Shown here: positions 27,842 through 44,665 of the stretch, piece after piece | Numbering within the stretch: position 1 is the first letter of the stretch | Layout: the number at the start of each line of letters is the position of its first letter | From: an uncultured Roseivirgaceae bacterium | Lineage (GTDB): Bacteria > Bacteroidota > Bacteroidia > Cytophagales > Cyclobacteriaceae | Assembly (NCBI GenBank): GCA_964551035.1 | Contig: CAZKBK010000009.1 | Coordinates: 8,662-72,661 of the forward strand | DNA length: 64,000 nucleotides | Direction of reading: 5' to 3' | Notes under the pieces: model-generated | Databases searched by the model: none | The model's input: only the letters and a program-made list of their open reading frames with translations | What the model was told of the DNA's origin: nothing | Position numbers and translations under genes: made by a program

Positions 27842-28198
27842 ATGCAGTTTGAGAATGGCAAAAGCATTTTTCTGCAGATCGCGGACACCATTACCGAAAA
27901 GGTAGTGAATGGCGAATTCCCGGCCGGTGAGAAGATACCATCCGTGCGGGAACTGGCGGCGGAAATGGGCGTGAATCCCAATACCGTCATGCGAACCTAT
28001 AGTGAACTACAAGCTATGAACATCATCGAAAATCAGAGAGGGATCGGATACTTCGTAAGTCCGGAAGCCCAGGGCATAATCCTCAAAGGGAAGAAGGAAG
28101 CGTTCTTCAACAGGGTATTGCCGGAATTTCTCAGGCAGGCGGCATTGCTGGGTATTACCGCCGATGAATTGAAAAAACACTTGGAAACACTGAACTGA
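27842..28198 (+). CDS. GntR-family transcriptional regulator, YtrA subfamily (short)
   Basis: 118 aa with a winged HTH: IPSVRELAAEMGVNPNTVMRTYSELQAMNIIENQRGIGYFV. The short C-terminal helical tail is typical of YtrA. Confidence 0.9.
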   Translation: MQFENGKSIFLQIADTITEKVVNGEFPAGEKIPSVRELAAEMGVNPNTVMRTYSELQAMNIIENQRGIGYFVSPEAQGIILKGKKEAFFNRVLPEFLRQAALLGITADELKKHLETLN

Positions 28199-29089: not shown

Positions 29090-29980
29090 ATGAATATTGA
29101 GATAACCGGGCTCACCAAGATCTACCCCAATGGGCATGCGGCCATCAGGGATGTGGACTTGCAGATCGGCAGCGGCATGTTTGGATTGCTTGGCCCCAAC
29201 GGCGCGGGCAAGTCGAGCTTTATGAGAATATTGGTCACGGTGCAAAAAGCCACCTCCGGCACCATCCTCATGGATGGGATGGACATCAATACGCACCGGC
29301 ATGAGATCAGGAAAACGATCGGATACCTTCCCCAGGACTTTACATTTTTCTCAAAGCTGAAGACCTGGGAATTTCTGGACTATGCCGCGCAACTGTCGAC
29401 ATCGCTGAAGAGAAAGGACCGGTTGGCGCGGGTTGACAGGCTGCTGGATCAGGTAGGCCTGCTCGACGTCCGCGAGCGGATGGCGAACAAACTCTCCGGT
29501 GGGATGAAGCGGAGGCTTGGCATTGCGCAAGCGCTCATCGGCGAACCGAGGCTGCTCGTCATCGACGAACCTACCACGGGCCTTGACCCTGAAGAACGCA
29601 TCCGCTTCCGGAACATCCTTTCCGACCTCAGCCAAAAGGACGTCACCATCATACTCTCAACCCATATCGTTGGCGACATCAGCAGCACATGCCACAACAT
29701 GGCCATGCTCAACAAGGGCGCGGTGGCTTTTAAAGGCTCCCCTGAGGGTATGATCGAGCGGGTACGCGGCCACGTCTGGCAGGTCGTGCTGGACGACGAC
29801 GCATTCAACGTCTTAAAGACCAGGCATTCGGTGGTTTCCACCATCCCTGCCGACGGCAAATGGGAAGTGCAACTCATCGCCGATGACCAGCCCCACCCTG
29901 CCGCCAGGCCGGCCAATCCAAACCTGGAACACGCGTATGTGTATTTTATGGAGAATGAATTTGGGGTGACACTGGTATGA
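29090..29980 (+). CDS. ABC transporter ATP-binding protein (ABC-2/DrrA-like, with C-terminal regulatory domain)
   Basis: Walker A GLLGPNGAGKSS, Q-loop GYLPQ, signature LSGGMKRRLGIAQAL, Walker B LLVIDEPTTGLD, H-loop STHIV. It is clearly paralogous to the NBD fused to the RND pump at 42574..43992. Confidence 0.9.
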   Translation: MNIEITGLTKIYPNGHAAIRDVDLQIGSGMFGLLGPNGAGKSSFMRILVTVQKATSGTILMDGMDINTHRHEIRKTIGYLPQDFTFFSKLKTWEFLDYAAQLSTSLKRKDRLARVDRLLDQVGLLDVRERMANKLSGGMKRRLGIAQALIGEPRLLVIDEPTTGLDPEERIRFRNILSDLSQKDVTIILSTHIVGDISSTCHNMAMLNKGAVAFKGSPEGMIERVRGHVWQVVLDDDAFNVLKTRHSVVSTIPADGKWEVQLIADDQPHPAARPANPNLEHAYVYFMENEFGVTLV

Positions 29981-32900
29981 TGTCCTTCAAAAATATCCTG
30001 ACTATTATGTCGTTCGAGGCCAGGGTGCTTTGGAGAAACTGGTTTTTCAGGATCATCGCCCTGCTCGGCGTGGGCTTCGTCGGCATTTTCAACCTGGCGG
30101 TTTTTTCCGAGCTCGACACGCCCCAATGGCACGTGCTCGCCAACGGATGGATACTCCCCTACGCCAGCCTGCTCATGATCAGTATCCCGCAAGCCGCCGC
30201 GGTCATATTCCTGGCGACCGGCATGATCAAGAAAGACAAAAAGCTTGACACCAATGAAGTCTTCTTCGTAAGGCCGATCACCAACCTCGACTACGTCTTT
30301 GGAAAAGCGCTGGCGCTGTTCACCCTCTTCTTCCTTTTGAACCTGGTGCTGCTTTGCATTCCCTTGATCATCGGCCTGACGAATCCTTCCGCCACCGTCA
30401 CGCCGCTGGCTTTTCTGATCTACCCGTTACTCACGACAGTCCCGGCGATCGTGTTTACCACGGGAATTTCATTCCTTCTCGTTACGGTCATCCGGAATCA
30501 GCCCATTTCCATTGTACTGCTCGTGGGTATTGCCGGCGTTCAACTGATCTACTACTTCGACCAGTTCTCCAATATCCTCGACTTCATGGCATTCCGCCTG
30601 TCGATGCTTGCCTCGGAGATCACCGGTTTCGTGGATATCGGATTTGCCCTATGGCAACGGGGCTTTTACTTGCTCACCGGCATTGCACTACTCTTTATCA
30701 CCGCGTTTCTCCTCGATCGCCTGGCGGGCCACAAGGTGGCGCACAAGGCCACCGCGTTCGTGGGTGTCGCGCTGTTGGCGGTTGCCGCATTCATCATGGT
30801 CAGGCTTTGGGACATGCGTCAGCGCCCGATTACGTTGCGCGAGGAGATGGTTGCCGTGAACGCCACCTGGGCAAACGTGCCCAACATCGATATCGTGTCG
30901 CACGTGATTGATGTAACGTGGTTGGGTGACCAGATCGCCAGCACTTCTGAGATGCGGGTGAGGAATAATACCAACCGGACATTGGATACGATCTACTTTA
31001 CCCTGAACCCGGGCTTAACGGTTGACGAAATGTTGGTTAACGACGCGCCGGTGAAGATCAACCGGGACTTGCAGATCGTGGCTATCGACGACGGCGTGAG
31101 CTTACCTGCCGGCGGCGAACTAACCGTCAGGATGAAATATCGCGGTCCCATCAGGGAGTCAGCCGCCCATTTGGACGTAGATCAGAAGCGTTACGAGTCT
31201 TCTAACGAACTGATCATGTTTTCACTGAAAAAGAAGTATGCATTCCTGGAACCGGATTATGTACTGCTTACCAAAGACGTGCTGTGGTACCCCGATACCC
31301 AGGTGGGCTTCAACCGCACTTCGGCCCGCAGGACCCGGCACAGCTTTGTGGATTTTCGATTGACTGTACACGCGCCAGCGGGTAAGACACCGATCTCCCA
31401 GGGCGAGGTCGTGATCAATGACGGCGTGCATCAGTTCCGACCGGAATATCCCCTGCCGCAAATTTCGCTCGTGATCGGCGACTATGCGAAAAAAGAGATA
31501 ACCGTTGACGGCGTTGACTATGCGGTTTTTCATCGTCCTGAAAATGATTTCTTCGTCCGGCATCTCGACCAACTCGCCGACACCCTGGGTTATCTCATCA
31601 GGGATGTTGCCAATGAATACGAAGATGCGCAAAAGCTCGCCTACCCGTTCAACAGGCTGCAGTTCGTGGAGGTCCCCATTCACTTCACCGCTTACGACAA
31701 GATTTATGATAGCCACCAGGCGTACTTACAACCTGAAACGGTCTTTTGGCCAGAGGAAGGCAGCCACATCAGGCAGTTCGACTTCAGAAGGCAGCTCCGT
31801 GACATGAACCGTCAGGCTGCCCGTACGAACCAGGTGTTGACGGACAAACAAAAGCAGGCGAACGTTTTCAACGACCTCATAAGAAAAGTGTTTACTAAAC
31901 AGATCGGCTCAACGTGGGTATGGGACGGCAGCGATGCCGATCGGGCGGATTATTCCCTCTTCCCCAACTATTACGATTTCAACTCGGGTATCGTCAGCGA
32001 GGATTGGCCTTTGCTGAACCGCAGCATCGCGACCTACCTGAGAAACGACAAGCAAACGCTGAATGACTATTCAAGAAATATCAACGGCATCTCTTTTACG
32101 GAAGAGTGCAACAACCTCATGCGAACGTCTTCCATGAAAGAGATCCTCACCGGGACGGAGTTCAGCAAGATCAGCAAGTCGGTGTCGCTGAAAAGCCAAT
32201 ACCTCTTCGCATACCTGGGCCACATGCTGGGCGAAAGCAACTTTAAGACGTTTCTGTATGACTGGGTGAACAACCATCAACACGAGCTCAATGGCTACCG
32301 TCATTTCCGGGAGGCGATCCGATCCCGATTCCACCTCGATATCGACCCCATTATTCGGGAAGTCTACGCTGAAACATCCCAACCGGCCTTCGAGATCCTC
32401 GACGTTCAGCAATATGAAGTAATGGACCGCGACCGGAAGCGTTATCAGGTGCTTGTCAAAGCAAGAAATTCCGGCGACAGTGACGGCGTGATCGAAGTCA
32501 GGTTCAACACGGGAGAAAGGGCCGCGGATGAAGACTACTATGCCGTAAAGGTGAATGAGGAGGTTGCCCAGGAGGCGCCGGGGAGGCTGGCGGTGATCAA
32601 ACAGGGCGAGACCAGGCTTATTGGTTTTGTCCTGGACGAAAAGCCAAACACGATCACCATCAACACCATAATCTCCAGGAACATACCCTCCTCGATCGTC
32701 ATGTCGGTTGGCGCCCTGTCGAGCCATGATGGCGGTCTTTTGTTTGACGGCGAGCGCGTCATCGCCAACGAACGGGATAACAACCCGTACGAGGTCATCG
32801 TCGACAACGAGGATCCCGGATTCAGCACCTTCAGCCCCATCAAGCCCACCATCTTGAAGGCCTGGCTGGACAGCCGCAATGCGACCGATCAAAAGTATTA

Positions 32901-33312
32901 CGGCAACTGGTCAAGTTCCTACTCCCGGTGGCTGGCGACAACCGGTTCCGGCTTCCATGGCCGCGTAATACGCTCGGCGCATTTCACCCGATCGGGAAAC
33001 GGTGAAAAGATCGCGACATGGGCTCCTGAATTGCCACAAGACGGCTTCTATGACCTTTATGTCTACATGATGGGCAAGAACCAGAATGAATTTCGGGGCG
33101 GCGATGGCGACAGCAGGCAGTTCACCTATCACTATGTAGTCAACAATGCCGACGGCACTGACGATATCCGCTACAACATTTCCAACGCGGAGCCGGGCTG
33201 GAATTACCTCGGCTCATACTATTTCGCTAAAAATGGTAGCAGCGTTTCGCTGACCGACGAATGCGAGCTACGAACGGTGTATGCGGATGCGGTCAAATGG
33301 GTCAGGCAGTAG
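29977..33312 (+). CDS. ABC-2-type permease fused to a large extracytoplasmic M1-aminopeptidase-like domain (catalytic motifs degenerate) and a C-terminal beta-sandwich
   Basis: The start overlaps the upstream stop (ATGA). The first ~290 aa are multi-pass membrane. The soluble part shows the M1-like order YPFNRLQFVEVPIHFTAYDK (GAMEN position), DLIRKVFTKQIG (HEXXH position), SEDWPLLNRSIATYL (WLNEG.A.Y position) and AYLGHMLGESNFKTFLYDWV. The C-terminal ~150 aa (GFYDLYVYMMGKNQ...VYADAVKWVRQ) is beta-sandwich-like. Confidence 0.75.
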   Translation: MMSFKNILTIMSFEARVLWRNWFFRIIALLGVGFVGIFNLAVFSELDTPQWHVLANGWILPYASLLMISIPQAAAVIFLATGMIKKDKKLDTNEVFFVRPITNLDYVFGKALALFTLFFLLNLVLLCIPLIIGLTNPSATVTPLAFLIYPLLTTVPAIVFTTGISFLLVTVIRNQPISIVLLVGIAGVQLIYYFDQFSNILDFMAFRLSMLASEITGFVDIGFALWQRGFYLLTGIALLFITAFLLDRLAGHKVAHKATAFVGVALLAVAAFIMVRLWDMRQRPITLREEMVAVNATWANVPNIDIVSHVIDVTWLGDQIASTSEMRVRNNTNRTLDTIYFTLNPGLTVDEMLVNDAPVKINRDLQIVAIDDGVSLPAGGELTVRMKYRGPIRESAAHLDVDQKRYESSNELIMFSLKKKYAFLEPDYVLLTKDVLWYPDTQVGFNRTSARRTRHSFVDFRLTVHAPAGKTPISQGEVVINDGVHQFRPEYPLPQISLVIGDYAKKEITVDGVDYAVFHRPENDFFVRHLDQLADTLGYLIRDVANEYEDAQKLAYPFNRLQFVEVPIHFTAYDKIYDSHQAYLQPETVFWPEEGSHIRQFDFRRQLRDMNRQAARTNQVLTDKQKQANVFNDLIRKVFTKQIGSTWVWDGSDADRADYSLFPNYYDFNSGIVSEDWPLLNRSIATYLRNDKQTLNDYSRNINGISFTEECNNLMRTSSMKEILTGTEFSKISKSVSLKSQYLFAYLGHMLGESNFKTFLYDWVNNHQHELNGYRHFREAIRSRFHLDIDPIIREVYAETSQPAFEILDVQQYEVMDRDRKRYQVLVKARNSGDSDGVIEVRFNTGERAADEDYYAVKVNEEVAQEAPGRLAVIKQGETRLIGFVLDEKPNTITINTIISRNIPSSIVMSVGALSSHDGGLLFDGERVIANERDNNPYEVIVDNEDPGFSTFSPIKPTILKAWLDSRNATDQKYYGNWSSSYSRWLATTGSGFHGRVIRSAHFTRSGNGEKIATWAPELPQDGFYDLYVYMMGKNQNEFRGGDGDSRQFTYHYVVNNADGTDDIRYNISNAEPGWNYLGSYYFAKNGSSVSLTDECELRTVYADAVKWVRQ

Positions 33313-33390
33313 GAGGTACGAATGAGGAGGTACGAATTACGAAGTACGAATTACGAGGTACGAGGTGCGATCGCCCTGTAGGGCGAAATG
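33311..33390. repeat. Heptamer-repeat tract (ACGAnnT x8) plus hairpin TCGCCC-tgta-GGGCGA; the same family as the 59.4-60.6 kb array, in opposite orientation
   Basis: AGGAGGT-ACGAATG-AGGAGGT-ACGAATT-ACGAAGT-ACGAATT-ACGAGGT-ACGAGGT, then GCGATCGCCCTGTAGGGCGA. The reverse complement matches the CCTCGTA / ATTCGTA tracts and the TCGCCCCTACAGGGCGA hairpin of the tandem units. It starts on the stop codon of 29977..33312. Confidence 0.6.
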
Positions 33391-33478
33391 TCGGTAACGA
33401 GATATGGCATAACATGAACGTCTTCACGAAACAACAACCCGATAAAAATTCCACAAGTTCAAAATAAGAATCCCAACG

Positions 33479-34990
33479 ATGCATATGAGTTTTCGTAAAA
33501 CAATCAACGCAACATCCGGGCAGGCTCCCAGCAATTGGATGGCAGCACTCCTTGTTCTGATAGGCTGCAGTCTGATCACGTCAGGGACCATGGCGCAGCG
33601 CACGCTGAATTTGAGCGAGGCGATCCGGATCGCGCAGGCCAGCAGTCCCAGCATTAAGAAATCGAAATTGAATCTATACGGTAATCAGCGAAGCCTCGAT
33701 GCGCAACGCGCCTCCCTGAAATCGAGATTCGCCCTGGATATCACGCCATTCGACTACAACCGAAACCGCAATTTCAACGACCTCTTTTCTACCTGGAACA
33801 CCAACGAAGACTATAACTCATTCGCTAACTTATCGGTCAGTCAGCCCATTGTGGCTACCGATGGGACCATCTCGCTGGTGAACCGGCTCGGCTACAGGGA
33901 CAACTATTCAGAGTTCCAGGATGTCAGGACGCAAACCTACAGCAACAACCTGTATTTGCAACTGGACCAGCCCATCTTCACCTACAACCGAACGAAGATC
34001 CAGCTCCGGGAATTGGAGCTGAACCTCGAGAATGCCAGGATCAGCAACGCGCTGCAATTGCTGAGCCTCGAACAAAACGTCACCCAATCGTTCTATGCCG
34101 TGTATCAAAGTCAAAACAACCTGGAGATTGCCAGGGACGAATACGAAAACCAAAAGATCAGCTATGAAATCACCAAAAACAAAGTGGATGCCGACCTCCT
34201 GGCAAAGGAAGAACTTTACCAGGCCGAATTAAACCTTGCCACCTCCAGGTCGACATTGGAAAACAATCAGGTGCTGCTTGAGAATGCCGCCGATGATTTC
34301 AAGCTGCTACTCGGAATCCCGCTGACGGAAGCACTCGCCGTCGAAGTGAATGTCGACTTTGTTACCCAGGAGGTGGACCTCAACAAGGCGATTGTTTTTG
34401 CCCTCGAGAACCGAATGGAACTACGGCAGCGCGCGATCGACATTGAACGTTCCCAGTTCGAACTGATCCGCACCAAGGCGTTGAACGAATTCAAAGGCGC
34501 GGTCTCGTTGTCATTGGGCATTTTTGGAGACAACGAACGCGCACCGGACATCTATGAGGTGCCGGCCGTGAATCCGCGCGTGGCGATATCCTTTAACATA
34601 CCCATTTTCGACTGGGGCGAAAACAGGGCGAGGATGGACGCCGCCAACGCAAGCCTCCAGATCAGGCAGGTAGACCTGGAAGTGGAGAAGAATGAGATCG
34701 TCATCAATATCAGGAAAGTCTATAGAAACCTCCAGAACCTTGAAAACCAAATACGGATCGCCGAGCAGAATGTCAAAAACGCCGAATTGACGTATGACAT
34801 CAACCTCGAACGCTACAAAAACGGAGACCTTACCAGCATCGACCTCAACCAGTTTCAAAGCCAGCTTTCCGAAAAGAAAAGCACGCTGGCGGATGCCCTG
34901 ATCAACTACAAAGTTGAATTGCTGAACCTTAAGATCCTCTCCCTCTATGATTTTGAGCATCAACAACCACTCATCATTCCATACAACTAA
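33479..34990 (+). CDS. TolC-family outer-membrane efflux protein
   Basis: 503 aa with a signal peptide (ALLVLIGCSLITSGTMAQ). It has the two-fold OEP repeat architecture with long coiled-coil segments (LNLSEAIRIAQASSPSIKKSKLNL; LERYKNGDLTSIDLNQFQSQL). Confidence 0.9.
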   Translation: MHMSFRKTINATSGQAPSNWMAALLVLIGCSLITSGTMAQRTLNLSEAIRIAQASSPSIKKSKLNLYGNQRSLDAQRASLKSRFALDITPFDYNRNRNFNDLFSTWNTNEDYNSFANLSVSQPIVATDGTISLVNRLGYRDNYSEFQDVRTQTYSNNLYLQLDQPIFTYNRTKIQLRELELNLENARISNALQLLSLEQNVTQSFYAVYQSQNNLEIARDEYENQKISYEITKNKVDADLLAKEELYQAELNLATSRSTLENNQVLLENAADDFKLLLGIPLTEALAVEVNVDFVTQEVDLNKAIVFALENRMELRQRAIDIERSQFELIRTKALNEFKGAVSLSLGIFGDNERAPDIYEVPAVNPRVAISFNIPIFDWGENRARMDAANASLQIRQVDLEVEKNEIVINIRKVYRNLQNLENQIRIAEQNVKNAELTYDINLERYKNGDLTSIDLNQFQSQLSEKKSTLADALINYKVELLNLKILSLYDFEHQQPLIIPYN

Positions 34991-35016
34991 TCTTCCAATT
35001 GCAAAAACATATCAAT

Positions 35017-36075
35017 ATGAAAAAACTGAAATACGGGATCCTTCCACTGCTAGCCATGATCGCCTTCTCCTCGTGCAGTCCCGAAGACTCCAGCATTAAG
35101 ACAGAAATAAAGATCCCTGTATCGGTTGTCAGTATCAAGCCGCAGAGCATTTCCCGGTTTATCGAGACAACGGGGACGGTGTATTCTTCGAAGGAAGGTC
35201 TGTTGAAGTTCGAACTGGGCGGCATCTACAGGCTCCAGCGAAACCCGGCTACCGGAAGACCATTCGCCCTCGGCGACGTCGTGAAAGCCGGCCAGGTGTT
35301 GATCCGGCTCGAAGACCGCGAGTTCGAGAATAGCCTCCAGGTGGAAGGCAAGAAGCTTAACCTTGAACTGGCGGAGGACAACCTCCGAAAACAAAAGTCG
35401 CTGTATGACAAGGGTGGCGTCACGCAGACCGAATTGAAAAACGCGTCCATCGAATATGTATCGGCAAAGTACGCCTATGAGAATGCCGAAATACAAATGG
35501 CTAAGCTGGCCGTGAAGGCTCCTTTTGATGGCGTTATCGTCGAACTCCCCTATCGCACCGACGGTGTAAGGATCGACCAGGGTCAGGAACTGGTCAAGGT
35601 GATGCAATACGACAAGCTGCTGATGGACGTCATGCTTCCCGAAAAGCATTTGCATGAAGTGACGGTCGACCAGGTCGTGCAGGTCTCCAGCTATAACGTG
35701 ACGCGGGATACAGTATATGGGAAGATCAGCCAGATCTCCCCGGTTATCAATCCCGATACCAGGACCTTCAAGAGCGTGCTTCAAATCAACAATGAAGAAC
35801 GGCTGTTGCGTCCGGGAATGTTTATCAAGGCATTCATCCTTTCGGAAAAGCACGACAGCACGATCGTGGTCCCTAAGGAGACGGTCATCTCCCGGCAGGA
35901 CGGCAAAGTCGTTTTCACCGTGGAAAATGGAATTGCCACGGAAAAGAAGATCACCACCGGACTTGAAAACATGGATGTGATAGAGGTCGTCGGCGGGCTG
36001 AAGGTCAACGACCGGCTGGTTGTTTCCGGATTCGAGACACTGAGGAACAAATCCAAAGTCAGCATCATTCAATAA
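35017..36075 (+). CDS. Efflux periplasmic adaptor (membrane fusion protein, HlyD/AcrA family), lipoprotein
   Basis: MKKLKYGILPLLAMIAFSSCS is a lipobox. Lipoyl/hairpin motifs: VKAGQVLIRLEDREFENSLQ and LAVKAPFDGVIVELP. The ORF opens at 34999. Confidence 0.9.
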   Translation: MKKLKYGILPLLAMIAFSSCSPEDSSIKTEIKIPVSVVSIKPQSISRFIETTGTVYSSKEGLLKFELGGIYRLQRNPATGRPFALGDVVKAGQVLIRLEDREFENSLQVEGKKLNLELAEDNLRKQKSLYDKGGVTQTELKNASIEYVSAKYAYENAEIQMAKLAVKAPFDGVIVELPYRTDGVRIDQGQELVKVMQYDKLLMDVMLPEKHLHEVTVDQVVQVSSYNVTRDTVYGKISQISPVINPDTRTFKSVLQINNEERLLRPGMFIKAFILSEKHDSTIVVPKETVISRQDGKVVFTVENGIATEKKITTGLENMDVIEVVGGLKVNDRLVVSGFETLRNKSKVSIIQ

Positions 36076-36101
36076 GCGTTTCAAACAAACTCAAAAATCG
36101 C

Positions 36102-39100
36102 GTGAAAAAGATAGTCTCGTTAGCGGTCTCCTACCCTGTTTCGATCCTGATGTTGGTGTTGGCTGTTATCCTGCTGGGTTCGATATCGTTCGGGAAGCTG
36201 GGCATCGAGCTGGTGCCGGAACTGAAGAACCCCACGTTGTTCGTGGAGCTAAAAGTCGGCATCAAGCCTCCGTCGGAAGTAGAAAAGCAATTCATTGAAT
36301 CCATCGAGTCCATTGCCATCAGGCAAAACGGCGCCGTCGAAGTGAGTTCCATGAGTCAGACGGGTTATGGCCGCGTCACGGTGCAGTACGACTGGGGCAA
36401 GGATATGGACGAAGCGTTCCTGGATCTTCAGAAATCGCTCTCGGCATTTTCAATGAACGAAGAGGTCGATGAATTCGTCATCTCGCAATTCGATCCCAAT
36501 GCCGCGCCGATCATGACCTTGGGAATCTATAATCCGGCATCCAATGACACGGACGCGCTGCGAAGGATAGCGGAGAACAACTTCAGAAACGAATTCATCA
36601 AACTGCCGGGCATCGCCGAAGTGCGCCTGTCCGGCGAGCAGGAGAAAGAGGTGGTGGTGGAAACGGACCCCGACCTGCTGGCCTCGTTCGGCCTTACGGT
36701 GAACGACCTGGTAACAAAGATCCAGAGTTACAACCGAAGTGTCTCCGGCGGCTTTATAGAAGACCTGGGACGTAAGTATGTCATCAAAGGATTGGGAATC
36801 ATCAACACCCCCGACGACATGGAAGAACTGGTGGTTGGCTACACCACCCGCGCAAATACCACCTCCAACCCGGGATCCGTATCCCTGACCGGAGAAATTG
36901 CGCCGGCTGCCAATAGTCAGGTGTCGGTATCGGATCAGGTACCCATCCTCCTTCGTGAAGTTGCAACGATACGGGTATTGAACAAAGAAGCCAGCACCAT
37001 TGTCAGGGTGAACCAGCAACGAAGCGTGGGAATGTCGATCTACAAAGAAACGAACTACAATACCGTCAATGCAGTCGATGAACTGATGACGGCCCTGGAG
37101 GAGCAGCGGAAAACGGTTCCCGGCTATGAGGTTGTCGTCATTCAGAATCAGGGCAGGTTTATTCAGGGCGCCATTGATGAAGTGAAAGAAGCGGGTCTGT
37201 ACGGCGCACTTTTCGCGATGATCGTCCTGTTCCTTTTCCTGCGGAGAATAGGATCGACCCTGATCGTCAGCATCATTATTCCGATTTCCGTCATCGCGAC
37301 CTTCAACCTGATGTATTTCAACGGGCTCACGCTGAATGTGATGACGCTGGGCGGACTGGCCTTGAGTGCTGGAATGCTCGTCGACATCGCCATCGTGGTG
37401 GTAGAGAATATTTTCCGCAGACGCGAAGAGGGACTGAGCGTCGTGGACGCTGCCGTAGTGGGCACAAGCGAAGTAAGCGGCGCCATCACGGCCTCGACGC
37501 TGACCACGATCGTTGTATTCCTTCCCATCGTCTACTTACAAGGTCCATCCGGAGAACTTTTTAAAGACCAGGCGTGGACGGTCGCCTTTTCACAGATGGC
37601 TTCCCTGGTTGTGGCCATCCTGGTGATCCCCATGCTCTTCGTCCAATTCTTTCGAAAGGATAAAGCTGTACGCAAGGAAACGCCGGTAAGGTTTCAAGCG
37701 TACCGTTCCCTCCTGGAAAAGGTCCTGAACCATAAGGCTGTCTTCATCGCAGCGTCTCTGGTAATGATGTTGGGGGCCTATTTGCTTTTGCCTGTAGTCG
37801 GCAGCGAGTATTTGCCGCAAGCCGGCACACGCGCCATCTCTGTTGACCTGACGATGAACAACGGCACGGCGCTTTTGAGAACTTCAGCAGCGGTGGGCCA
37901 AATCGAAAGCCAGCTCATGCAGCTTTTCGACGGGCAGCTGGAGAAAACCTATTCGCATATTGGTGCACAGCAAACCCAGTCCGGTATCAGCAATGACAAC
38001 GCTTTCCATGAAAACACGGCTAACATCAAGCTCATTTTCAGGGAAGATGTCGAATTGGACATGGCCGCGGCTACGTCGAGGCTATCCGCATACTTTGAAG
38101 CGTTGCCCGGCATTGAGGCTACGTTCTCCAATGACGAGAGTTACCTCTATGCCGTAAAAGGCAGCGAGGAAATGCCGCTGATCATCGAAATAAGCGGTCC
38201 TGAGTTCGAAAGCCTCAAGCCGCTTTCCGATTCAGTTATGCTCGCCCTGGCTGCCAATGAACACGTCTATGAACCCGTGTCCGATCTTGAAGAAGGAGTG
38301 CCGCAAGTAAAAGTCGATGTTGACAAGTACAGGGCGGGATTGCTGAACCTCTCCATTGACGACGTGATCGTTCAGGTTAAAGACCGCCTGGAGGGCAAGG
38401 ATGCCGGCGCCATCGAACGCGATGGAGAGATGCAAACCATAAGCATAAAGGTTCCGGAACTTTCGCTGGCGGGACTGGAGAACCTGCGTATAAAGAGTGG
38501 CGAGCGTGAATTTCCATTAAGTGAGATCGCAAGTGTGACCGTGGAGCACGCCAGCAATTCCATTTACCGCAAGAATCAAACAAGGACAGTCTCCATCGGC
38601 GCGCGGGTGAACCCGGACATCCCGTATGACAAAGTGATCAAGTCCGTGGAAGCATCCCTGATGACGCTATCGGTGCCACCCCAGTATAAAATACGGGTAG
38701 CCGGCCAGGAGTTGCGGCGCAAGGAGTCTCTTAAGAACCTGAGTTTCGCGCTGGTACTCTCGGTTGTATTGGTGTACATGGTCCTTGCGTCACAGTTCGA
38801 ATCGCTCCTCCATCCTTTTACGATCTTGTTGACGATACCATTCGCCACCGTTGGTGCGATACTCGCATTCTTCGTCCTTGGGATGCCCTTAAACATGATG
38901 GGATTCATCGGAATCATTCTCCTCGGGGGAATTGCCGTGAACAACTCGATCATCCTCGTCGATTGCATCACGCAAAACAGGATGAGCGGAATGGCTGTCA
39001 AAGAAGCCATACTTGACGCCGGCCAGCGCCGGTTGCGACCCATATTGATGACCACCCTGACGACCATCCTGGGCCTCCTTCCGTTGACTTTGGGATTCGG

Positions 39101-39269
39101 AGAAAGCGCCGCATTAAGAACGCCCATCGCCATTGCCGTGATCGGAGGATTGACCACGTCTACCCTACTGACGCTGATCATCATTCCCTGCTACTACGAG
39201 AGCATTGAAAATATTGTTGAATGGTTGAGGGGTAGGCGAAAAGTGAAAATCGAAGTTCAACATGGCTAA
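36102..39269 (+). CDS. RND efflux permease (AcrB/MdtB-like), paralog 1
   Basis: 1055 aa with a GTG start. It has the classical 12-TM plus two large periplasmic loop layout. TM4 is GMLVDIAIVVVENIFR and TM10 is GGIAVNNSIILVDCI. Its stop overlaps the start of the next RND gene by 8 nt. Confidence 0.95.
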   Translation: MKKIVSLAVSYPVSILMLVLAVILLGSISFGKLGIELVPELKNPTLFVELKVGIKPPSEVEKQFIESIESIAIRQNGAVEVSSMSQTGYGRVTVQYDWGKDMDEAFLDLQKSLSAFSMNEEVDEFVISQFDPNAAPIMTLGIYNPASNDTDALRRIAENNFRNEFIKLPGIAEVRLSGEQEKEVVVETDPDLLASFGLTVNDLVTKIQSYNRSVSGGFIEDLGRKYVIKGLGIINTPDDMEELVVGYTTRANTTSNPGSVSLTGEIAPAANSQVSVSDQVPILLREVATIRVLNKEASTIVRVNQQRSVGMSIYKETNYNTVNAVDELMTALEEQRKTVPGYEVVVIQNQGRFIQGAIDEVKEAGLYGALFAMIVLFLFLRRIGSTLIVSIIIPISVIATFNLMYFNGLTLNVMTLGGLALSAGMLVDIAIVVVENIFRRREEGLSVVDAAVVGTSEVSGAITASTLTTIVVFLPIVYLQGPSGELFKDQAWTVAFSQMASLVVAILVIPMLFVQFFRKDKAVRKETPVRFQAYRSLLEKVLNHKAVFIAASLVMMLGAYLLLPVVGSEYLPQAGTRAISVDLTMNNGTALLRTSAAVGQIESQLMQLFDGQLEKTYSHIGAQQTQSGISNDNAFHENTANIKLIFREDVELDMAAATSRLSAYFEALPGIEATFSNDESYLYAVKGSEEMPLIIEISGPEFESLKPLSDSVMLALAANEHVYEPVSDLEEGVPQVKVDVDKYRAGLLNLSIDDVIVQVKDRLEGKDAGAIERDGEMQTISIKVPELSLAGLENLRIKSGEREFPLSEIASVTVEHASNSIYRKNQTRTVSIGARVNPDIPYDKVIKSVEASLMTLSVPPQYKIRVAGQELRRKESLKNLSFALVLSVVLVYMVLASQFESLLHPFTILLTIPFATVGAILAFFVLGMPLNMMGFIGIILLGGIAVNNSIILVDCITQNRMSGMAVKEAILDAGQRRLRPILMTTLTTILGLLPLTLGFGESAALRTPIAIAVIGGLTTSTLLTLIIIPCYYESIENIVEWLRGRRKVKIEVQHG

Positions 39270-42200
39270 GAACAGTCTGTTACATACCATCATTAGAAGG
39301 AAGGTCCTCGTATCGATGTTGTTCATCGGCCTGACGGTGATGGGCTACATCTCCTACAACAAGCTTCCCGTGGAGTTGTTCCCCAATGTGGAACTGCCGA
39401 TCCTGATCGTTCATGTAAGCCCGACGACGGAAGTCGATCCGAAGTACATGGAACGTCAGGCAATCGTACCGTTGGAGGGCGCCATCAGCACGCTTGAAGG
39501 AGTCGCCGAGATCACCGCGAATGCGGATAGCCAGCAGGGCATGATCTTCATATCCTTCCAGCAAGGGGTGAACATCAAATACGCTTACCTCAAGCTTGAA
39601 CAGAAAGTGGGCGCCATTAAGTCAAGCCTGGCGCCCGAATTCCTGGTCAACATTATCAAGATCGACACGGAGGAGTTCACCAACGCCTTCATGGATCTAC
39701 AGGTCCTCGGCAGCGGTGGCGTGGACCGCGTGCGGAATGTCACCGACCAGTATATCACCGACCGGTTGACCGAGATCGATGGTATTGGCGGCGCCGAAGT
39801 GTTTGGTGGTCGCCAAAAAACCGTCGAGATCATCATGCATGACGCCGTTTGCGAGGCCAATGGCATAACGCCGAATACCATTAGCAACGTCCTGTCGCAA
39901 AACTCGAACAAAAGCGCTTTTGCTGGCCAGGTAGAAATGGATGGGCGGAAAGTATTCGTGAACGTAACCGCCGAACTGAAGGACATCAAGAACATTCAAA
40001 GCCTCGTGGTATCGGACAAAGGACCGCTGCGCCTGAGTGATGTTGCCGACGTGTTCTTCGGCGTCAAGGAGCAAACCACCCTGAGCCGGGTCAATGGAAA
40101 AGACGCCGTCTCCATCCGACTCTCGAAAGACCCACAAGCCAACCTGATCGCATTGTCGGAAAGGACGCTGGCGTCGATCGATGCCATCAACGAAGACCTC
40201 GCCCCACTCGATGTCAGGATCGTGGTCCAAAGCAACCAGGCCGAGACCATGTCAAAGAATATCGACCAGATCAAAAACCTGGCCGTGACCGGAGGACTGT
40301 TGGCCGTATTTGTGCTGTGGATCTTCCTCCGGCGCGTAAAGGTCATTTTAAGCATCGCCCTGTCCATCCCGGTTTCCGTTTACGCCGCTTTCAACTTCTT
40401 TTACGCCTACGACATCTCGATCAACAGCCTCACCCTGATCGGCATGGCACTGGCCATCGGCATGCTGGTAGATAACAGTGTTGTCGTGATCGAAAATATT
40501 TATCGTCACCTGGTGGACAAGAAAAAAGCCGAAGAGGCAGTCGTCACCGGGACGAAAGAGGTGATGCGTTCGGTGATTGCCGCGACGCTCACAACCGTAA
40601 CCGTATTCCTTCCTTTTATCTTCTCCTCCAACTTCCTGATCACCCTCATCGGAACCCATATCGGCGTTTCGATCATTGCAACCTTGCTCGTGTCGCTCGT
40701 GGTGGCCCTCGTGTTGATTCCGATGCTGGCGTATGCCGCCATCGGCAGGAATGACCACCAGGCGCCCTTGATCAAAAATGCTTCCATCCGCCAGCGGACC
40801 ATCCAGATGTACATGGTTTTTCTGAAGTCGTGTTTCCGGAGGCCGATGTTTACCGTTACCGGCGGATTGGTGTTGTTTTTTGTCAGCATCGGCCTGGGCC
40901 TTGTTGTGAGCCTGGCCAGTGTGGAGGAAGTGGAGACCACCGAGATGAATCTGTTTGTCACCCTTCCACAGGGCGCGACGCTTGAAGCAACAGACATCAG
41001 GACCCGGGCGGTCGAAGAAAAGGTGATGAAAATACCCGTGATTGAAAAAGTCATAAGCCAGGTCTCGGAAGGTGAAGCGGTACTCACCGTCAAACTTGTC
41101 GAGGGATTCAAAGACCTGGACACGATATCGGTGGTGGATGTACGCAATCAACTTTCCGGCATCTCCGACGATTTCCAGGACCTGGATATTTCACTGGATA
41201 AACCACCGGCACAAGGCGGCGGACAAAGCGGCGCCGGCAACGCTGCCCAGAACGATTTCCAACGTATGCTCGGAATCGGCACAGCCTCCGAGCGCATCGT
41301 GATCAAGGGTGAGGACTTTGAATTGATGCAGACCATTGCGCAAGACATCAACACCATCGTTGGCGGCCTGCAGGCCGTTTCCCAAAGTACGGTAAACATC
41401 AGCCCGGAACGTCCCGAGGCGCATCTTGTATTCGACCAGCAGCGAATGAGCGAAAATCACATCACGCTCCAAAACGTAGCCGTTGCGCTCAATGACTTTC
41501 AGCCCGCTTTCACCTCCGGCGCCACGTTCATCAGCGGCGGCGAGGAATACGAAATCACCATCCGCACGCAAAAGCGGATCGATACCAGGGCGAAGGAAAT
41601 GAGCGACCTCCGTGAGATGCCCGTCACCAGCACAACGGGCGCGACCCACGCACTCTCCGACATCGGCACAGCGATCTATTCATCCGGCGAAAGCACCATC
41701 ACCCGCCAGAACCAGGAGAAGCGAATTGAAATTACCTATAGCTTCATCGATGAGGTATTGAAATCCGAATCGTTGCTCGAAGCTTCCCGCCTGGAGATCG
41801 ACCAGATTGTGAGCGGTGTAAACATACCATCGGGAATGGTGGTGGAGGTCATCCACGATGAAGGCCTCTATGATGATTTCTACTTTTTCATCTTCGCCGC
41901 CATCGTGATCATATTGATGATCCTGGCCGCCGTATTCGAATCCCTGTACTTGCCCTTTGTAATCATCTTTTGCATTCCCCTTGCGGCCATAGGTTCATTC
42001 CTGAGCCTTGTCCTGACGGGCAATTCCATACTCAGCGCCAACACATTGATCGGGTTCTTGATCCTGCTCGGCGTGGTGGTGAACAATGGCATCATCCTGA
42101 TCGACTATTCCCGCATCCTGCGGCGGCAAGGTTACACCCGGTACCGCGCGCTCATGATGAGCGGCATCTCCCGGATCCGGCCCATTCTGATTACGTCGAT

Positions 42201-43992
42201 CACAACCATCATCGCCATGCTGCCGCTCGCACTCGGGGAAGCGGAGTACGTCGTCAGCATAGGGCAACCCTTCGCGGTAACCGTGATGGGCGGCCTCGCG
42301 TTCGCCACGATACTTACCCTGTTCTATATTCCGACCATGAGCGCCGGTCTGGAAAGTGTCCTGCATTGGTTCCGGAACCTGAGGCCCGCAGTCAAGGCAA
42401 CACAGATCGGGCTCATGATCATGGTCGGCGCGTTCATTTCCACGGAGGTGGAAGGACTGGTCTGGCAAATGATCGCCTACATCGCCGCCATCATCCTCAT
42501 CCCGGGCGGCACCCACTTCATCATGTCGTCGTTGCGGCAGGCGAATGCCAGGATGGTGGCCCCGGATGAGGCGATGCACATTGAAATCCGGAACCTCACC
42601 AAAGTATACGGCAGGGACAAGCGATGGATCAGGGAGTGGAAAGGAAACAGGCGCCTCTTCGACGCGCGCGGCGAAGCGCCCGTAACGATGAAGGCGCTTC
42701 TCCAGGAGCTCGTCTGGCAGGGCGCGTTGGGCGCCTTCCTGGCCTACTTTGTCTACTTCTTCCTCGACAAAGCATTCTGGCAATTGTTCTTCATGATCGC
42801 TTTGCACGCGCTCCTGCTGTCCCTGTTCGCCGACTTCGCCAAACTTGTGCGCGGCAAACAAAAGCTCGTGACGGCTGTCCAAGCCTTGCTGTACTGGGGA
42901 TTCCCAACGCTAAGCGCCATCTACCTTTACACCGATATCCAAATCAAAGCGCTGGGCGTCATTCTGATCGTGCTTTGGTTTGCGGGCCTGTTGCTTGTAC
43001 GCGCGTCGCAGCGGCTCAGCGAGACACCGGTGGATGTCGATGCGATCACGGGCCGTTTTAAGAGGATCCGGAAGCTGTATCTTAGGATTCTGCTTTCGAT
43101 CCCGTTTGTAAAACCCAGGAAAGCACCCTTCAAGGCCCTGAAGGGCGTGAGCCTCACCATTGAGCAGGGGATGTTCGGACTCCTGGGGCCCAACGGCGCC
43201 GGCAAGACCACGCTCATGCGGATCCTTTGTGGCATCCTGGACCAAAGCTACGGCAAGATCTGGATCAATGGTCATGATACAACCTTACGCCGGGAAGAAC
43301 TGCAAGGCCTTATCGGATACCTGCCCCAGGCCTTTGGCACTTACGAGAACATGACGCCTTATGAATTCCTGGACTACCAGGCCATCCTGAGAAAGATCAC
43401 CAACAAGGACGAAAGGCAGGATAGGGTACAATATGTTTTAAAGGCGGTCCATATGGATGAGCACCAGCACAAAAAGATCGGTTCCTTCTCCGGCGGCATG
43501 AAGCAGCGCATTGGCATTGCGCAGATCTTGCTGCATCTACCGAAGATACTGGTGGTGGACGAACCTACGGCGGGCCTCGATCCATTGGAGCGTATCCGAT
43601 TCCGCAACCTCCTGGTGGAACTCAGCCGGGAACGGATCGTCGTGTTCTCCACACACATCATCGAAGACATCGCCAGCAGCTGTAACAAGCTGGCGGTACT
43701 CATCTCCGGCAATATTGAATACATGGGCAGCCCTGCCACCATGGCCGAACTGGCCAGCGAAAAGGTGTGGGAATTTCATGTAACACCCGATGAATTTGAA
43801 GCTGAGAAAGACAACTACCTGATCGTTCACCATATGCGGGAAGGCGACCTGGTACGCGTAAAGTGCTTGTCGGACACGCTGCCCAGGCTGAACGCCGTCC
43901 AGGTGCGCGCCAACCTGGAAGACGCTTACCTGTGGCTGATGCAAAGTAAATCCAGAAAAAAACATGAAGAGCTCTCTGCTGCTGTTGTATAG
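39262..43992 (+). CDS. RND efflux permease (paralog 2) fused in frame to extra TM helices and a C-terminal ABC-transporter ATP-binding domain
   Basis: A single 1576-codon frame. Residues 1-~1035 form a complete AcrB-like RND (TM4 GMLVDNSVVVIENIYR; TM10 GVVVNNGIILIDYS). Two extra hydrophobic helices follow. From M1105 (nt 42574) it reads IEIRNLTKVYG, then a ~165-aa 4-helix insertion, then FKALKGVSLTIEQGMFGLLGPNGAGKTT (Walker A, nt 43186-43209), Q-loop GYLPQ, signature FSGGMKQRIGIAQIL, Walker B ILVVDEPTAGLD and H-loop STHII. Confidence 0.85.
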   Translation: MAKNSLLHTIIRRKVLVSMLFIGLTVMGYISYNKLPVELFPNVELPILIVHVSPTTEVDPKYMERQAIVPLEGAISTLEGVAEITANADSQQGMIFISFQQGVNIKYAYLKLEQKVGAIKSSLAPEFLVNIIKIDTEEFTNAFMDLQVLGSGGVDRVRNVTDQYITDRLTEIDGIGGAEVFGGRQKTVEIIMHDAVCEANGITPNTISNVLSQNSNKSAFAGQVEMDGRKVFVNVTAELKDIKNIQSLVVSDKGPLRLSDVADVFFGVKEQTTLSRVNGKDAVSIRLSKDPQANLIALSERTLASIDAINEDLAPLDVRIVVQSNQAETMSKNIDQIKNLAVTGGLLAVFVLWIFLRRVKVILSIALSIPVSVYAAFNFFYAYDISINSLTLIGMALAIGMLVDNSVVVIENIYRHLVDKKKAEEAVVTGTKEVMRSVIAATLTTVTVFLPFIFSSNFLITLIGTHIGVSIIATLLVSLVVALVLIPMLAYAAIGRNDHQAPLIKNASIRQRTIQMYMVFLKSCFRRPMFTVTGGLVLFFVSIGLGLVVSLASVEEVETTEMNLFVTLPQGATLEATDIRTRAVEEKVMKIPVIEKVISQVSEGEAVLTVKLVEGFKDLDTISVVDVRNQLSGISDDFQDLDISLDKPPAQGGGQSGAGNAAQNDFQRMLGIGTASERIVIKGEDFELMQTIAQDINTIVGGLQAVSQSTVNISPERPEAHLVFDQQRMSENHITLQNVAVALNDFQPAFTSGATFISGGEEYEITIRTQKRIDTRAKEMSDLREMPVTSTTGATHALSDIGTAIYSSGESTITRQNQEKRIEITYSFIDEVLKSESLLEASRLEIDQIVSGVNIPSGMVVEVIHDEGLYDDFYFFIFAAIVIILMILAAVFESLYLPFVIIFCIPLAAIGSFLSLVLTGNSILSANTLIGFLILLGVVVNNGIILIDYSRILRRQGYTRYRALMMSGISRIRPILITSITTIIAMLPLALGEAEYVVSIGQPFAVTVMGGLAFATILTLFYIPTMSAGLESVLHWFRNLRPAVKATQIGLMIMVGAFISTEVEGLVWQMIAYIAAIILIPGGTHFIMSSLRQANARMVAPDEAMHIEIRNLTKVYGRDKRWIREWKGNRRLFDARGEAPVTMKALLQELVWQGALGAFLAYFVYFFLDKAFWQLFFMIALHALLLSLFADFAKLVRGKQKLVTAVQALLYWGFPTLSAIYLYTDIQIKALGVILIVLWFAGLLLVRASQRLSETPVDVDAITGRFKRIRKLYLRILLSIPFVKPRKAPFKALKGVSLTIEQGMFGLLGPNGAGKTTLMRILCGILDQSYGKIWINGHDTTLRREELQGLIGYLPQAFGTYENMTPYEFLDYQAILRKITNKDERQDRVQYVLKAVHMDEHQHKKIGSFSGGMKQRIGIAQILLHLPKILVVDEPTAGLDPLERIRFRNLLVELSRERIVVFSTHIIEDIASSCNKLAVLISGNIEYMGSPATMAELASEKVWEFHVTPDEFEAEKDNYLIVHHMREGDLVRVKCLSDTLPRLNAVQVRANLEDAYLWLMQSKSRKKHEELSAAVV

Positions 43993-44665
43993 GCTTACGA
44001 CCTACAATGTAAAGGTCATCTTTGGGAACAAGTTTGTCTACTTCGTGGTGGCGGCATTCCTGTTCTTTGGGTTCATCATCACCGTAGCTATTTTCGACGA
44101 CCCCGATTTCGACGAGGCGGTCATTTATGGCTTCCTGGTATTCCCGGGGCTGTTGCTCATTTTTTATCCAATGGCCTATGGCATCCAGAACGACGATGAT
44201 GCCAGGATGCTCGAAACTATTTTTGGAATACCCAACTACCGGTACAAGGTGTGGCTCGTGCGTTTCGTCCTCACCATCGGTATTGCCGCGGTGATCTTGT
44301 GGGTGCTCGCCCACATTGCCAACCTGACCCTCTACCGGTTCAATATCATGCCCATGCTTGGACAAGTGCTCTTCCCGATCACGTTCCTCTCTTCACTGGC
44401 GTTTATGCTGTCGACGCTTATTAAAAATGGCAACGGCACCGCCATCGTGCTCGTGGTTGTCGCATTCATCTTTTTTGTCTTCGCCGATCCCCTGGAGTAC
44501 AGTGTCTACAACGTCTTCCTCAATCCATTCTCGGAACCCCGCGAGATGAGCGAATTCGTCTGGCTCACGATCATCTACAAAAACAGGCTTTACCTGATGG
44601 TGCTCAGTGTACTTAGTCTATTGTATGGTATGTACAACCTGCAGTTCAGGGAAAAGTTCGTCTGA
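43964..44665 (+). CDS. 6-TM ABC-2-like membrane protein, probable permease partner of the fused NBD
   Basis: 233 aa with six hydrophobic helices. It overlaps the 3' end of the fusion gene by 29 nt. Confidence 0.65.
   Translation: MKSSLLLLYRLTTYNVKVIFGNKFVYFVVAAFLFFGFIITVAIFDDPDFDEAVIYGFLVFPGLLLIFYPMAYGIQNDDDARMLETIFGIPNYRYKVWLVRFVLTIGIAAVILWVLAHIANLTLYRFNIMPMLGQVLFPITFLSSLAFMLSTLIKNGNGTAIVLVVVAFIFFVFADPLEYSVYNVFLNPFSEPREMSEFVWLTIIYKNRLYLMVLSVLSLLYGMYNLQFREKFV

Follow-up and report, generated by a model that had tools for sequence, protein, structure and literature searches.

The locus

We analysed a stretch of 64,000 nucleotides from an uncultured Roseivirgaceae bacterium of the order Cytophagales, a soil Bacteroidota (GenBank assembly GCA_964551035.1, contig CAZKBK010000009.1, positions 8,662 to 72,661), which is referred to below as the window. 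Between positions 29090 and 44665, it carries seven open reading frames (ORFs), all on the + strand, that encode two permeases of the resistance-nodulation-division (RND) superfamily, a periplasmic adaptor of the membrane fusion protein (MFP) type, a TolC-family outer-membrane factor (OMF), and ATPases and permeases belonging to the ABC (ATP-binding cassette) type. The central finding is that the second RND permease, RND-2, is joined covalently, via its cytoplasmic C-terminus, to an ATPase of the ABC-2/ABCA type, i.e., to a nucleotide-binding domain (NBD). The genes are tightly packed: neighbours overlap by 4, 8, or 29 nt or stand 8 or 26 nt apart, apart from a larger gap, of 166 bp, 5' of the OMF gene. 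A first-pass annotation of this DNA had spoken of eight genes, whereas we count seven ORFs, as does its own list; its ORF coordinates match ours exactly, and it had placed and sized the 166-bp gap correctly. The features are the following (aa, amino acids; TM, transmembrane):

29090..29980, + strand: NBD1, free ABC ATPase, 296 aa (ABC_tran, E 8.6e-31)
29977..33312, + strand: g2, large ABC-2-type permease, 1111 aa, 7 TM helices and an 834-aa periplasmic part
33313..33478: 166-bp intergenic gap with heptamer repeats (GAGGTACGAATTAC, 3.6 copies)
33479..34990, + strand: TolC-family OMF, 503 aa (Pfam OEP in two stretches, E 1.2e-42)
34999..36075, + strand: periplasmic adaptor MFP, 358 aa (TIGR01730 RND_mfp; HlyD_D23)
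36102..39269, + strand: RND-1, unfused RND permease, 1055 aa (ACR_tran, E 1.4e-199)
39262-43992, + strand: RND-2::ABC-ATPase fusion, 1576 aa (ACR_tran at residues 8-1026, ABC_tran at residues 1293-1437)
39262..42384, + strand: RND-2 portion of the fusion, residues 1 to ~1041, 12 TM helices and two periplasmic loops
42385..42546, + strand: extra TM hairpin of the fusion after RND TM12, residues ~1042-1095 (AlphaFold2, hydropathy)
42577..42609, + strand: NBD strand β1 of the fusion with the A-loop tyrosine, HIEIRNLTKVY, residues 1106-1116
42688..43023, + strand: four-helix membrane insertion inside the NBD of the fusion, residues ~1143-1254 (AlphaFold2)
43129..43992, + strand: rest of the ABC ATPase of the fusion, residues 1290-1576 and stop codon
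43964..44665, + strand: g7, small ABC-2-like permease, 233 aa, ~6 TM helices, 29-nt overlap with the fusion gene

The RND-2::ABC-ATPase fusion

A fusion of this kind could be an artefact, two neighbouring genes of this one genome having been joined through a frameshift, the loss of a stop codon, or an assembly error. We scanned one genome per GTDB species and recovered 52 loci, all of them in Cytophagales, the closest species representatives belonging to Chryseosolibacter (93% identity on a partial match). The fusion frame stays open over at least 1500 codons in every one of the 45 independent species loci long enough to show so. Databases hold hundreds of full-length fusion proteins from independent assemblies: more than 120 clusters (at 90% identity) match it over its full length, at ~1577 aa and 75-87% identity, with the same Pfam pair, and they come from Chryseotalea, Fulvivirga, Marivirga, Xanthovirga, Imperialibacter, Marinoscillum, and many metagenome-assembled genomes (MAGs). 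The linker is, moreover, a conserved stretch that comes out folded in the model. The open frames and the full-length relatives rule out the artefact, which we regard as next to impossible.

The opposite error was met at one locus (L066:300-3433), where, in place of the fusion, there are two pieces overlapping by 40 nt, an RND fragment and a hairpin-plus-NBD protein of 539 aa (P0318). The contig has 2x coverage per its name, and the split is probably a frameshift error rather than a natural unfused form; with an overlapping RND fragment before it on such a contig, P0318 does not convince as an unfused protein. Neither does P0253 (526 aa) as a stand-alone NBD, as it lies on a 2.4-kb contig and its cluster-mate has 1567 aa. 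Current labels differ in what they record of the fusion. It is named only 'efflux RND transporter permease subunit' by NCBI, and 'multidrug efflux pump subunit AcrB/ABC-type multidrug transport system ATPase subunit' by JGI, which records both domains.

After TM12 of the RND portion, the chain continues with two hydrophobic helices, the strand HIEIRNLTKVY (conserved among orthologs), and ~173 residues with four helices, before β2 and the Walker A motif are reached. The extra helices are even in number, and both pieces of the NBD are therefore cytoplasmic, in agreement with lysine/arginine-rich loops that follow the positive-inside pattern. We modelled residues 1030-1576 with AlphaFold2, using an alignment of 50 sequences of 28-81% identity. 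The model has a mean predicted local distance difference test score (pLDDT) of 89.1 and a predicted template modelling score (pTM) of 0.80, and presents an NBD with six extra membrane helices. In the numbering of this C-terminal part, the hairpin helices span 13-33 and 37-66, the β1 strand spans 77-87, and the insertion helices, which lie between β1 and β2, span 114-137, 142-166, 171-196, and 200-225 with a pLDDT mostly of 85-95. A Foldseek search of the PDB with this model matched the NBD alone (TM_1403, 4yer, as the closest fold, as well as NosF, LptB, and ABCA), the six extra helices being without a solved counterpart; by sequence, the closest solved proteins are ABCA-type NBDs (E 4e-51). 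An NBD broken by a four-helix membrane insertion is an unusual ABC architecture. Among the 45 orthologs, column identity reaches 0.94 in the NBD core and ~0.59 in the TM hairpin.

The fused NBD scores above the Pfam cut-off for ABC_tran and has all its motifs (K1315, Q1356, S1410, D1433-E1434, and H1465). The Walker A lysine, the Q-loop glutamine, the SGG signature, the Walker B Asp-Glu pair, and the H-loop histidine are invariant in the 50 aligned sequences, which argues that the ATPase is under selection as an active enzyme. Judged by its motifs, the fused ATPase is catalytically intact.

Conservation of the locus in Cytophagales

We searched the 52 loci with the window proteins by tblastn. 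Of the 40 loci whose upstream flank is complete (10 kb), 37 show the same order from the end of g2 through the OMF, the MFP, RND-1, and the two halves of the fusion to g7; in the other three, extra DNA between MFP and RND-1 puts g2 beyond the flank. The g7 gene lies 3' of the fusion in 50/50 loci, NBD1 lies directly 5' of g2 in every locus with enough flank, and RND-1 stands immediately 5' of the fusion, both in Cytophagales and in the distant loci of long type described below. The first-pass annotation had argued that this was no chance neighbourhood and had named a lack of conserved gene order as what would speak against a single system. In our comparison, the gene order proved strongly conserved, which bears out the former (37/40 for collinearity, 50/50 for g7, 45/45 for the open frame), and the core recurs in distant lineages.

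The genes that follow g7 in the window (a 216-aa protein, HmuY, and a TonB-dependent receptor) are not conserved in related loci, so the right border of the block lies at 44665, where it had already been drawn. The left border had been drawn at 29090 and has to be moved, the Cytophagales block opening at 26235 and comprising 11 genes (26235-44665). The counterpart of the 33313-33478 gap measures 5-7 bp in two of the Cytophagales loci (L054 and L056) and ~220 bp in a third (L057); since its length varies between loci, the gap is not a conserved break.

Distant lineages and two types of fusion

We then used the C-terminal 547 residues of the fusion as query in a full HMMER search of 1.84 billion representatives, which returned fusion proteins down to 34% identity. 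Among the best 150 representatives (clustered at 50% identity), 32 have at least 1400 aa and both the RND and the NBD parts. Named members come from Bacteroidota (Bacteroidaceae), KSB1 (RKY89563.1), Acidobacteriota (RMF72268.1), Candidatus Hinthialibacter, Omnitrophota, and BRC1 SM23_51. The distant loci have the same core and fall into two types. In the long type (~1550-1600 aa), the fusion has the extra helices, its C-terminal part is 34-50% identical to ours in the distant loci (L060, L063, L064, and L065), and the gene order there is NBD, g2-like, an optional OEP gene, MFP, RND-1, RND-2::NBD, and small permease. In the short type (~1419-1470 aa), the NBD begins ~140 residues past TM12 and the membrane insertion is absent; the order (L061, L068, and L069) is MFP, NBD, small ABC-2 permease, RND-1, a ~900-aa protein that starts with six TM helices and carries a large ectodomain, RND-2::NBD, and an optional OEP gene. 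Short fusions were found in Omnitrophota, Candidatus Hinthialibacter, BRC1, and other MAGs, at the following positions in the three loci:

L061:10001-14326, short-type fusion
L068:10001-14260, short-type fusion
L069:10001-14314, short-type fusion

Both types share six parts: two RNDs, one of them fused, a free ATPase, a small and a large ABC-2 permease, and an MFP. The same parts list in two gene orders is strong evidence that the parts work together, and the covalent RND::NBD fusion is evidence of physical association. The parts thus belong to one functional system, and the earlier proposal of a single machine, or of tightly co-regulated machines, is supported in this sense by the synteny, the two operon orders, and the fusion.

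Some neighbours of the distant loci may be mentioned. Glycosyltransferase or sugar-modifying genes lie near all three short-type loci, and a sulfatase gene near two of them. At one locus only (L063:1-1318), a protein with CmlA_N and a metallo-β-lactamase fold and a TauD-family dioxygenase are encoded directly 5' of the block; they could be tailoring enzymes for a secondary metabolite.

The RND pair, the adaptor, and the outer-membrane channel

RND-1 and RND-2 are members of the RND superfamily, with scores of 665.7 and 505.1 bits against the ACR_tran profile (PF00873; cut-off 28), RND-2 spanning profile positions 3-1016 of 1021. On the contrary, they fall below the NCBIfam cut-offs for the HAE-1 family, the best model, NF033617, giving 556.9 for RND-1 and 436.5 for RND-2 vs 1250, and TIGR00915 giving 341 and 261 vs 940. 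They are not orthologs of MdtB or MdtC by the equivalog models either (346.6 and 251.1 vs 1584 for MdtB; 335.4 and 260.4 vs 1774 for MdtC). The two proteins are 25% identical to each other, and both are 19-26% identical to AcrB, MdtB, and MdtC. Two adjacent RND paralogs with a single MFP gene are nevertheless an arrangement of the MdtBC type, as the first-pass annotation had recognised; it is borne out by the ORFs and the Pfam matches and is kept in all related loci.

The proton relay of AcrB consists of D407, D408, K940, R971, and T978. The equivalent residues are D428, I429, N947, R979, and T984 in RND-1 and D404, N405, N941, R973, and T978 in RND-2. D407, R971, and T978 are hence kept in both proteins, D408 is replaced by Ile in RND-1 and by Asn in RND-2, and K940 by Asn in both, so neither of them has a relay of the AcrB type. 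Every fusion and partner RND that we examined has D408 and K940 replaced and the TM4 Asp, the TM11 Arg, and the TM11 Thr kept, and the closely matching solved RND pumps all have Asp-Asp plus Lys. This pattern might be read as a dead proton relay and hence as a sign of an RND driven by ATP. We dropped this argument, since, among the 70 nearest unfused RNDs returned by a protein search, 63 show this D-[N/S] plus Asn signature too. The signature being common in unfused RNDs, the change in the proton relay is typical of a clade and is not tied to the fusion. The RND parts are presumably ordinary members, still proton-driven, of a less-studied RND clade.

This clade is large. Represented by the RND region of the window (36102-42384) and by P0477-P0546, it comprises fused and unfused proteins, including some of Bacillota and Halanaerobiales, with Asp-Asn or Asp-Ser in TM4, Asn at the K940 position, and R971 and T978 kept; its proton pathway appears to be unstudied. 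An ordinary RND that neighbours the block in L065 has D-N with the Lys kept.

The MFP passes the cut-off of TIGR01730 (200 bits vs 94.9), matches MacA merely at E 2.6e-5, and is present in every related locus. The OMF belongs to the TolC family (PF02321 OEP, 146.3 bits vs a cut-off of 22, in two stretches), and falls below the cut-off of the TIGR01844 subfamily (86.6 vs 225), so that we assign it to no particular subfamily. Its gene lies inside the block in Cytophagales and in L065, and closes the block in L061 and L068.

The ABC half

NBD1 and the fused NBD are paralogs, as had been proposed, and each is the closest paralog of the other; they share 39% identity over 300 aa (E 2e-71), a stretch that takes in a C-terminal extension common to both, and a third ATPase of the Cytophagales block, NBD0, is just 27-31% identical to either. 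NBD1 also scores above the Pfam cut-off for ABC_tran and has canonical motifs (K41, Q82, S136, D159-E160, and H192). Neither protein is a GldA equivalog (TIGR03522, 171.4 for NBD1 and 169 for the fused NBD vs 402.6). Their affinities are with DrrA and GldA among the NCBIfam models, below the cut-offs, and with ABCA among solved structures.

The large permease g2 has seven TM helices and a cytoplasmic N-terminus, and its 834-aa C-terminal part is therefore periplasmic. It matches ABC2_membrane_4 weakly (17.1 bits vs a cut-off of 27, E 0.0057), as do 16 of the 21 members of its family. Its transmembrane domain is paralogous to g7 (E 1.4e-7), which itself has no Pfam match; the g7 orthologs or analogs in L060, L061, and L068 match ABC2_membrane_2/3/4, mostly weakly (ABC2_membrane_2/3 in L060). 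With ~six TM helices, a cytoplasmic N-terminus, and a partner NBD of the DrrA/ABCA type, the topology is that of ABC-2 permeases. Pfam found no FtsX or MacB_PCD domain in any of the seven proteins, which are thus not of the MacB type.

The C-terminus of g2 matches Golvesin_C (E 1.2e-11), and its family profile matches the C-terminal carbohydrate-binding domain of a xanthan lyase from Paenibacillus (6f2p, E 1.2e-5) and gives a weak match to aminopeptidase N (E 0.036). The first-pass annotation had called the ectodomain M1-like, and this resemblance is plausible, if weakly supported. Indeed, Peptidase_M1 matches weakly in all 21 members of the g2 family (best E 1.2e-7), over profile positions 142-215 of 218 only, and the 50 best PDB matches of a low-confidence AlphaFold2 model (pLDDT 53) by Foldseek are all M1 aminopeptidases, with E values down to 4.5e-15 and TM-scores of ~0.2. 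The comparison with PepN by hhalign gave E 0.0035 with a probability of 9%, and a sequence search of the PDB with g2 alone returned no match. What does not hold is a peptidase site: the HExxH-(18)-E zinc site and the GxMEN exopeptidase motif of M1 enzymes are absent both from g2 and from its distant homolog in L060, and the domain probably lacks catalytic activity.

In the long type, the free NBD is encoded beside the large permease and the fused NBD beside the small one, and in the short type it is the reverse. We read this swap as favouring one heterodimeric ABC-2 transporter of four parts over two fixed pairs of NBD and transmembrane domain, or two separate homodimers.

The upstream module and the flanking DNA

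In Cytophagales, four further genes precede NBD1:

26235..27065, + strand: NBD0, third ABC ATPase, 276 aa, opening the Cytophagales block (Pfam ABC_tran)
27055..27840, + strand: perm0, 261 aa, 6 predicted TM helices, 11-nt overlap with NBD0 (hydropathy)
27842..28198, + strand: small GntR-family regulator of the YtrA/PmtR type, 118 aa (Pfam GntR)
28204..28884, + strand: anchored protein, 226 aa, a single TM helix at the N-terminus and a β-rich domain of 200 aa (hydropathy)

We compared this module with the Pmt equivalog models NF047565 and NF047563. The best NCBIfam match of NBD0 is PmtA (E 4.6e-36, 124.6 vs a cut-off of 350), and the GntR protein aligns over its full length with PmtR (E 3.3e-14, 53 vs a cut-off of 200) and with the Rv1152 family (E 8.8e-15), all below the cut-offs. 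No Pfam or NCBIfam match was found for perm0, the presumed permease partner of NBD0, or for the 226-aa anchored protein. NBD0, perm0 (263-264 aa), and the GntR gene occupy the same position in L054, L056, and L057, and the DNA further 5' of NBD0 differs in all three; a 227-aa counterpart of the anchored protein lies between the GntR gene and NBD1 in L054-L057. Only Cytophagales loci have the NBD0/GntR module, which is lacking from L060 and L063-L065. By analogy, it resembles the YtrA/PmtR pattern, in which a small GntR repressor controls an ABC exporter, and in Cytophagales such a repressor together with the third ABC module would probably provide substrate-responsive control.

Directly downstream of the locus, on the - strand (45598-49108), lie genes for a HmuY-like protein (489 aa) and a TonB-dependent receptor (679 aa), probably a pair for haem or porphyrin uptake; other species do not conserve it beside the block. 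Upstream of the region studied, at 11652-16700 on the - strand, there is a very long ORF of 1682 aa. The heptamer units between g2 and the OMF gene, GGTACGA and TACGAAT (33308-33370), reappear as their reverse complements, TCGTACC and ATTCGTA, inside a tandem array at 59402-60635, which has a 281-bp unit in 4.3 copies with 89% identity. No ORF of at least 80 aa spans this array and no Rfam match was found in it; an Rfam search of the whole window returned zero matches.

A proposed export machine and its alternatives

Our preferred reading, to which we give a probability of roughly 45%, is that the locus encodes one envelope-spanning export system, in which a heteromeric RND pump is tethered to a heterodimeric ABC-2 exporter. 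RND-1 and RND-2 would form a heterotrimer of the MdtB2C kind that serves the single MFP and TolC-like channel. The single fused ATPase of this trimer would pair with NBD1, and g7 with g2, and the resulting heterodimeric ABC-2 transporter would be attached laterally to the RND trimer and share the MFP/OMF duct. Such a pairing of one fused and one free NBD would resolve the mismatch between the 3-fold symmetry of the RND and the 2-fold symmetry of the ABC transporter. The ABC half would use ATP to bring a substrate from the cytoplasm or the inner leaflet to the periplasmic face, where the large ectodomain of g2 would hold it, and the RND half, still proton-driven, would take it over and expel it through the MFP/OMF duct. 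The conserved carbohydrate-binding-module (CBM)-like and M1-like domains hint at a substrate that is glycan- or peptide-bearing or amphipathic.

Several observations weigh against this reading. A trimer with two fused subunits and an NBD homodimer fits the data equally well, and both NBDs are fully canonical, without the degenerate site that many obligate heterodimers have. The block lacks an OMF gene in L060, L063, L064, and L069, and the huge periplasmic domain of g2 hints at periplasmic work rather than at membrane transport. Across lineages, the flanking genes show no consistent pattern that would point to a common substrate. Moreover, the operon is putative: the locus has gaps of 205 and 166 bp, and in sequence scans the sigma-70-type promoters and the terminators are as numerous as expected from shuffled sequence; a motif scan for the Bacteroidota -7/-33 motifs showed no enrichment, with none upstream of the locus.

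A machine of the preferred kind might go further and be of hybrid energy, in that ATP hydrolysis by the RND-tethered NBD would directly load, gate, or drive the RND cycle; we consider this rather improbable, without dismissing it. A rival reading, which we judge very unlikely, is that the RND cycle is driven or gated by ATP through the six-helix anchor, packed on the RND TM domain and replacing or supplementing a relay without D408 and K940. The Asn at the K940 position of both RNDs, with Asn or Ile at the D408 position, against the Asp-Asp plus Lys of all the solved close homologs, as well as the confidently modelled helices directly after TM12, would suit this idea. Its plausibility is lowered by the D-[N/S] plus Asn signature of most of the nearest unfused RNDs, by the short-linker fusions, which do without any membrane insertion, and by the fact that a lone NBD is unable to hydrolyse ATP without a partner. 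The TM4 Asp and the TM11 Arg are, besides, retained as in proton pathways of the SecDF type.

Alternatively, the ABC half could act in the periplasm, as in NosDFY, MacB, LolCDE, or FtsEX, the work of ATP being relayed via the ABC-2 permeases to the ectodomain. The M1-like/CBM ectodomain would then capture a periplasmic or surface peptide or glycan, and load or gate the RND/MFP/OMF duct. An ectodomain is indeed found in every version of the locus (it has Golvesin_C in L060 and L063-L065, and belongs to the ~900-aa protein with six TM helices in L061, L068, and L069), the M1-like fold without a zinc motif suggests binding and not catalysis, the structural matches of the fused NBD include NosF, and JGI names a relative of g2 a NosY-type permease. 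On the other hand, the NBDs are closest to exporters of the ABCA/DrrA type, MacB_PCD and FtsX domains are absent, and the M1-like assignment comes from weak sequence matches and a model with a pLDDT of 53. We hold this reading to be unlikely, though a serious contender. We likewise consider it unlikely that the locus encodes separate transporters, i.e., an RND and one or two homodimeric ABC-2 exporters that act in sequence on the same or related compounds without a defined supercomplex, much as single-component pumps are known to cooperate with RND pumps, the fusion serving co-expression or co-localisation only. ABC-2 exporters are normally homodimers, and the modules do look complete, with full-length ACR_tran, Asp/Arg/Thr relay residues, and two canonical NBDs. 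Yet the fusion is kept in at least six phyla and in two operon layouts with no verified unfused form, the apparent stand-alone forms being contig-end fragments or the frameshift-like split on a 2x contig, and an NBD placed on a trimeric RND would hardly dimerise without a specific complex geometry.

Comparison with known systems

Each part of the locus is of a known superfamily, and, by profile scores, no component passes an equivalog-level test. In the open-access full-text papers and preprints, which are the literature covered, we found no description of an RND::ABC fusion, of an ABC-2/M1 permease, or of the composite system, in line with the first-pass annotation, which had not recognised it as a described system. 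Likewise, the portion available of a major 2021 review of tripartite efflux mentions no RND-ABC fusion.

Among RND systems, the nearest are MdtABC and MuxABC, which also have two adjacent RND paralog genes and one MFP. For both our RNDs, MdtB and MdtC rank among the better matches in NCBIfam and the PDB, and MdtBC is a known RND heterotrimer (PMC8277102). However, MdtB and MdtC are 50% identical to each other and RND-1 and RND-2 only 25%, the relay here is D-N/I plus Asn and not Asp-Asp plus Lys, one RND is fused to an ABC ATPase with six extra TM helices, and the ABC-2 permeases and the second ATPase are obligatory neighbours.

By its parts list, the ABC half resembles YbhGFSR of E. coli, an ABC exporter with two NBDs, two 6-TM permeases, its own MFP, and a presumed outer-membrane channel partner (PMC7190983), in that one operon encodes a pair of ATPase domains, a pair of paralogous 6-TM permeases, and an MFP. 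In YbhF, though, the two NBDs are fused together, whereas here one is free and one is fused to an RND permease; YbhGFSR has no RND component, and here one permease carries an 834-aa ectodomain. MacAB-TolC and DevBCA share with our locus an ATP-driven export via an MFP and a TolC-family channel. MacB is, however, of the type VII fold with FtsX and MacB_PCD, neither of which is found here, the NBDs are of the ABC-2/ABCA type, and the MFP matches MacA weakly while passing the RND_mfp cut-off. NosDFY couples an ATPase and a permease of the ABC-2 type to a large periplasmic domain, and NosF matches the fused NBD structurally; in contrast, genes for NosD, NosL, and nitrous-oxide reductase are absent here, Nos systems have no RND, MFP, or OMF, and the periplasmic domain here is M1-like plus CBM-like and fused to the permease. 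Finally, the upstream genes (26235-28198), a PmtA-best ATPase and a small PmtR-aligned GntR protein, recall PmtR-PmtABCD of S. aureus and the YtrA-type operons, but their scores lie under the equivalog cut-offs, the host is Gram-negative, and no phenol-soluble modulins are implied.

Significance

RND pumps, which are proton-driven, and ABC transporters, which are ATP-driven, are usually treated as separate inner-membrane engines. Here, they are covalently joined, in a fusion that is conserved in several phyla and that its current NCBI naming as an RND permease hides. There is a realistic chance that the system is categorically new, if the two energy sources are mechanically coupled. A hybrid-energy machine, if true, would have no known precedent among transporters, in that a single polypeptide assembly would link the two energy sources mechanically, and would answer how a 2-fold ABC dimer docks on a 3-fold RND trimer. 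If the parts form one complex, it would give a direct experimental handle on two matters that have been debated for long: how a cytoplasm-facing pump hands its substrate over to a periplasm-facing RND, and the use of heteromeric RND trimers. Members of the family occur in the cultured Marivirga tractuosa, Chryseotalea sanaruensis, Fulvivirga, and Chryseosolibacter histidini, which makes genetics and cryo-electron microscopy feasible.

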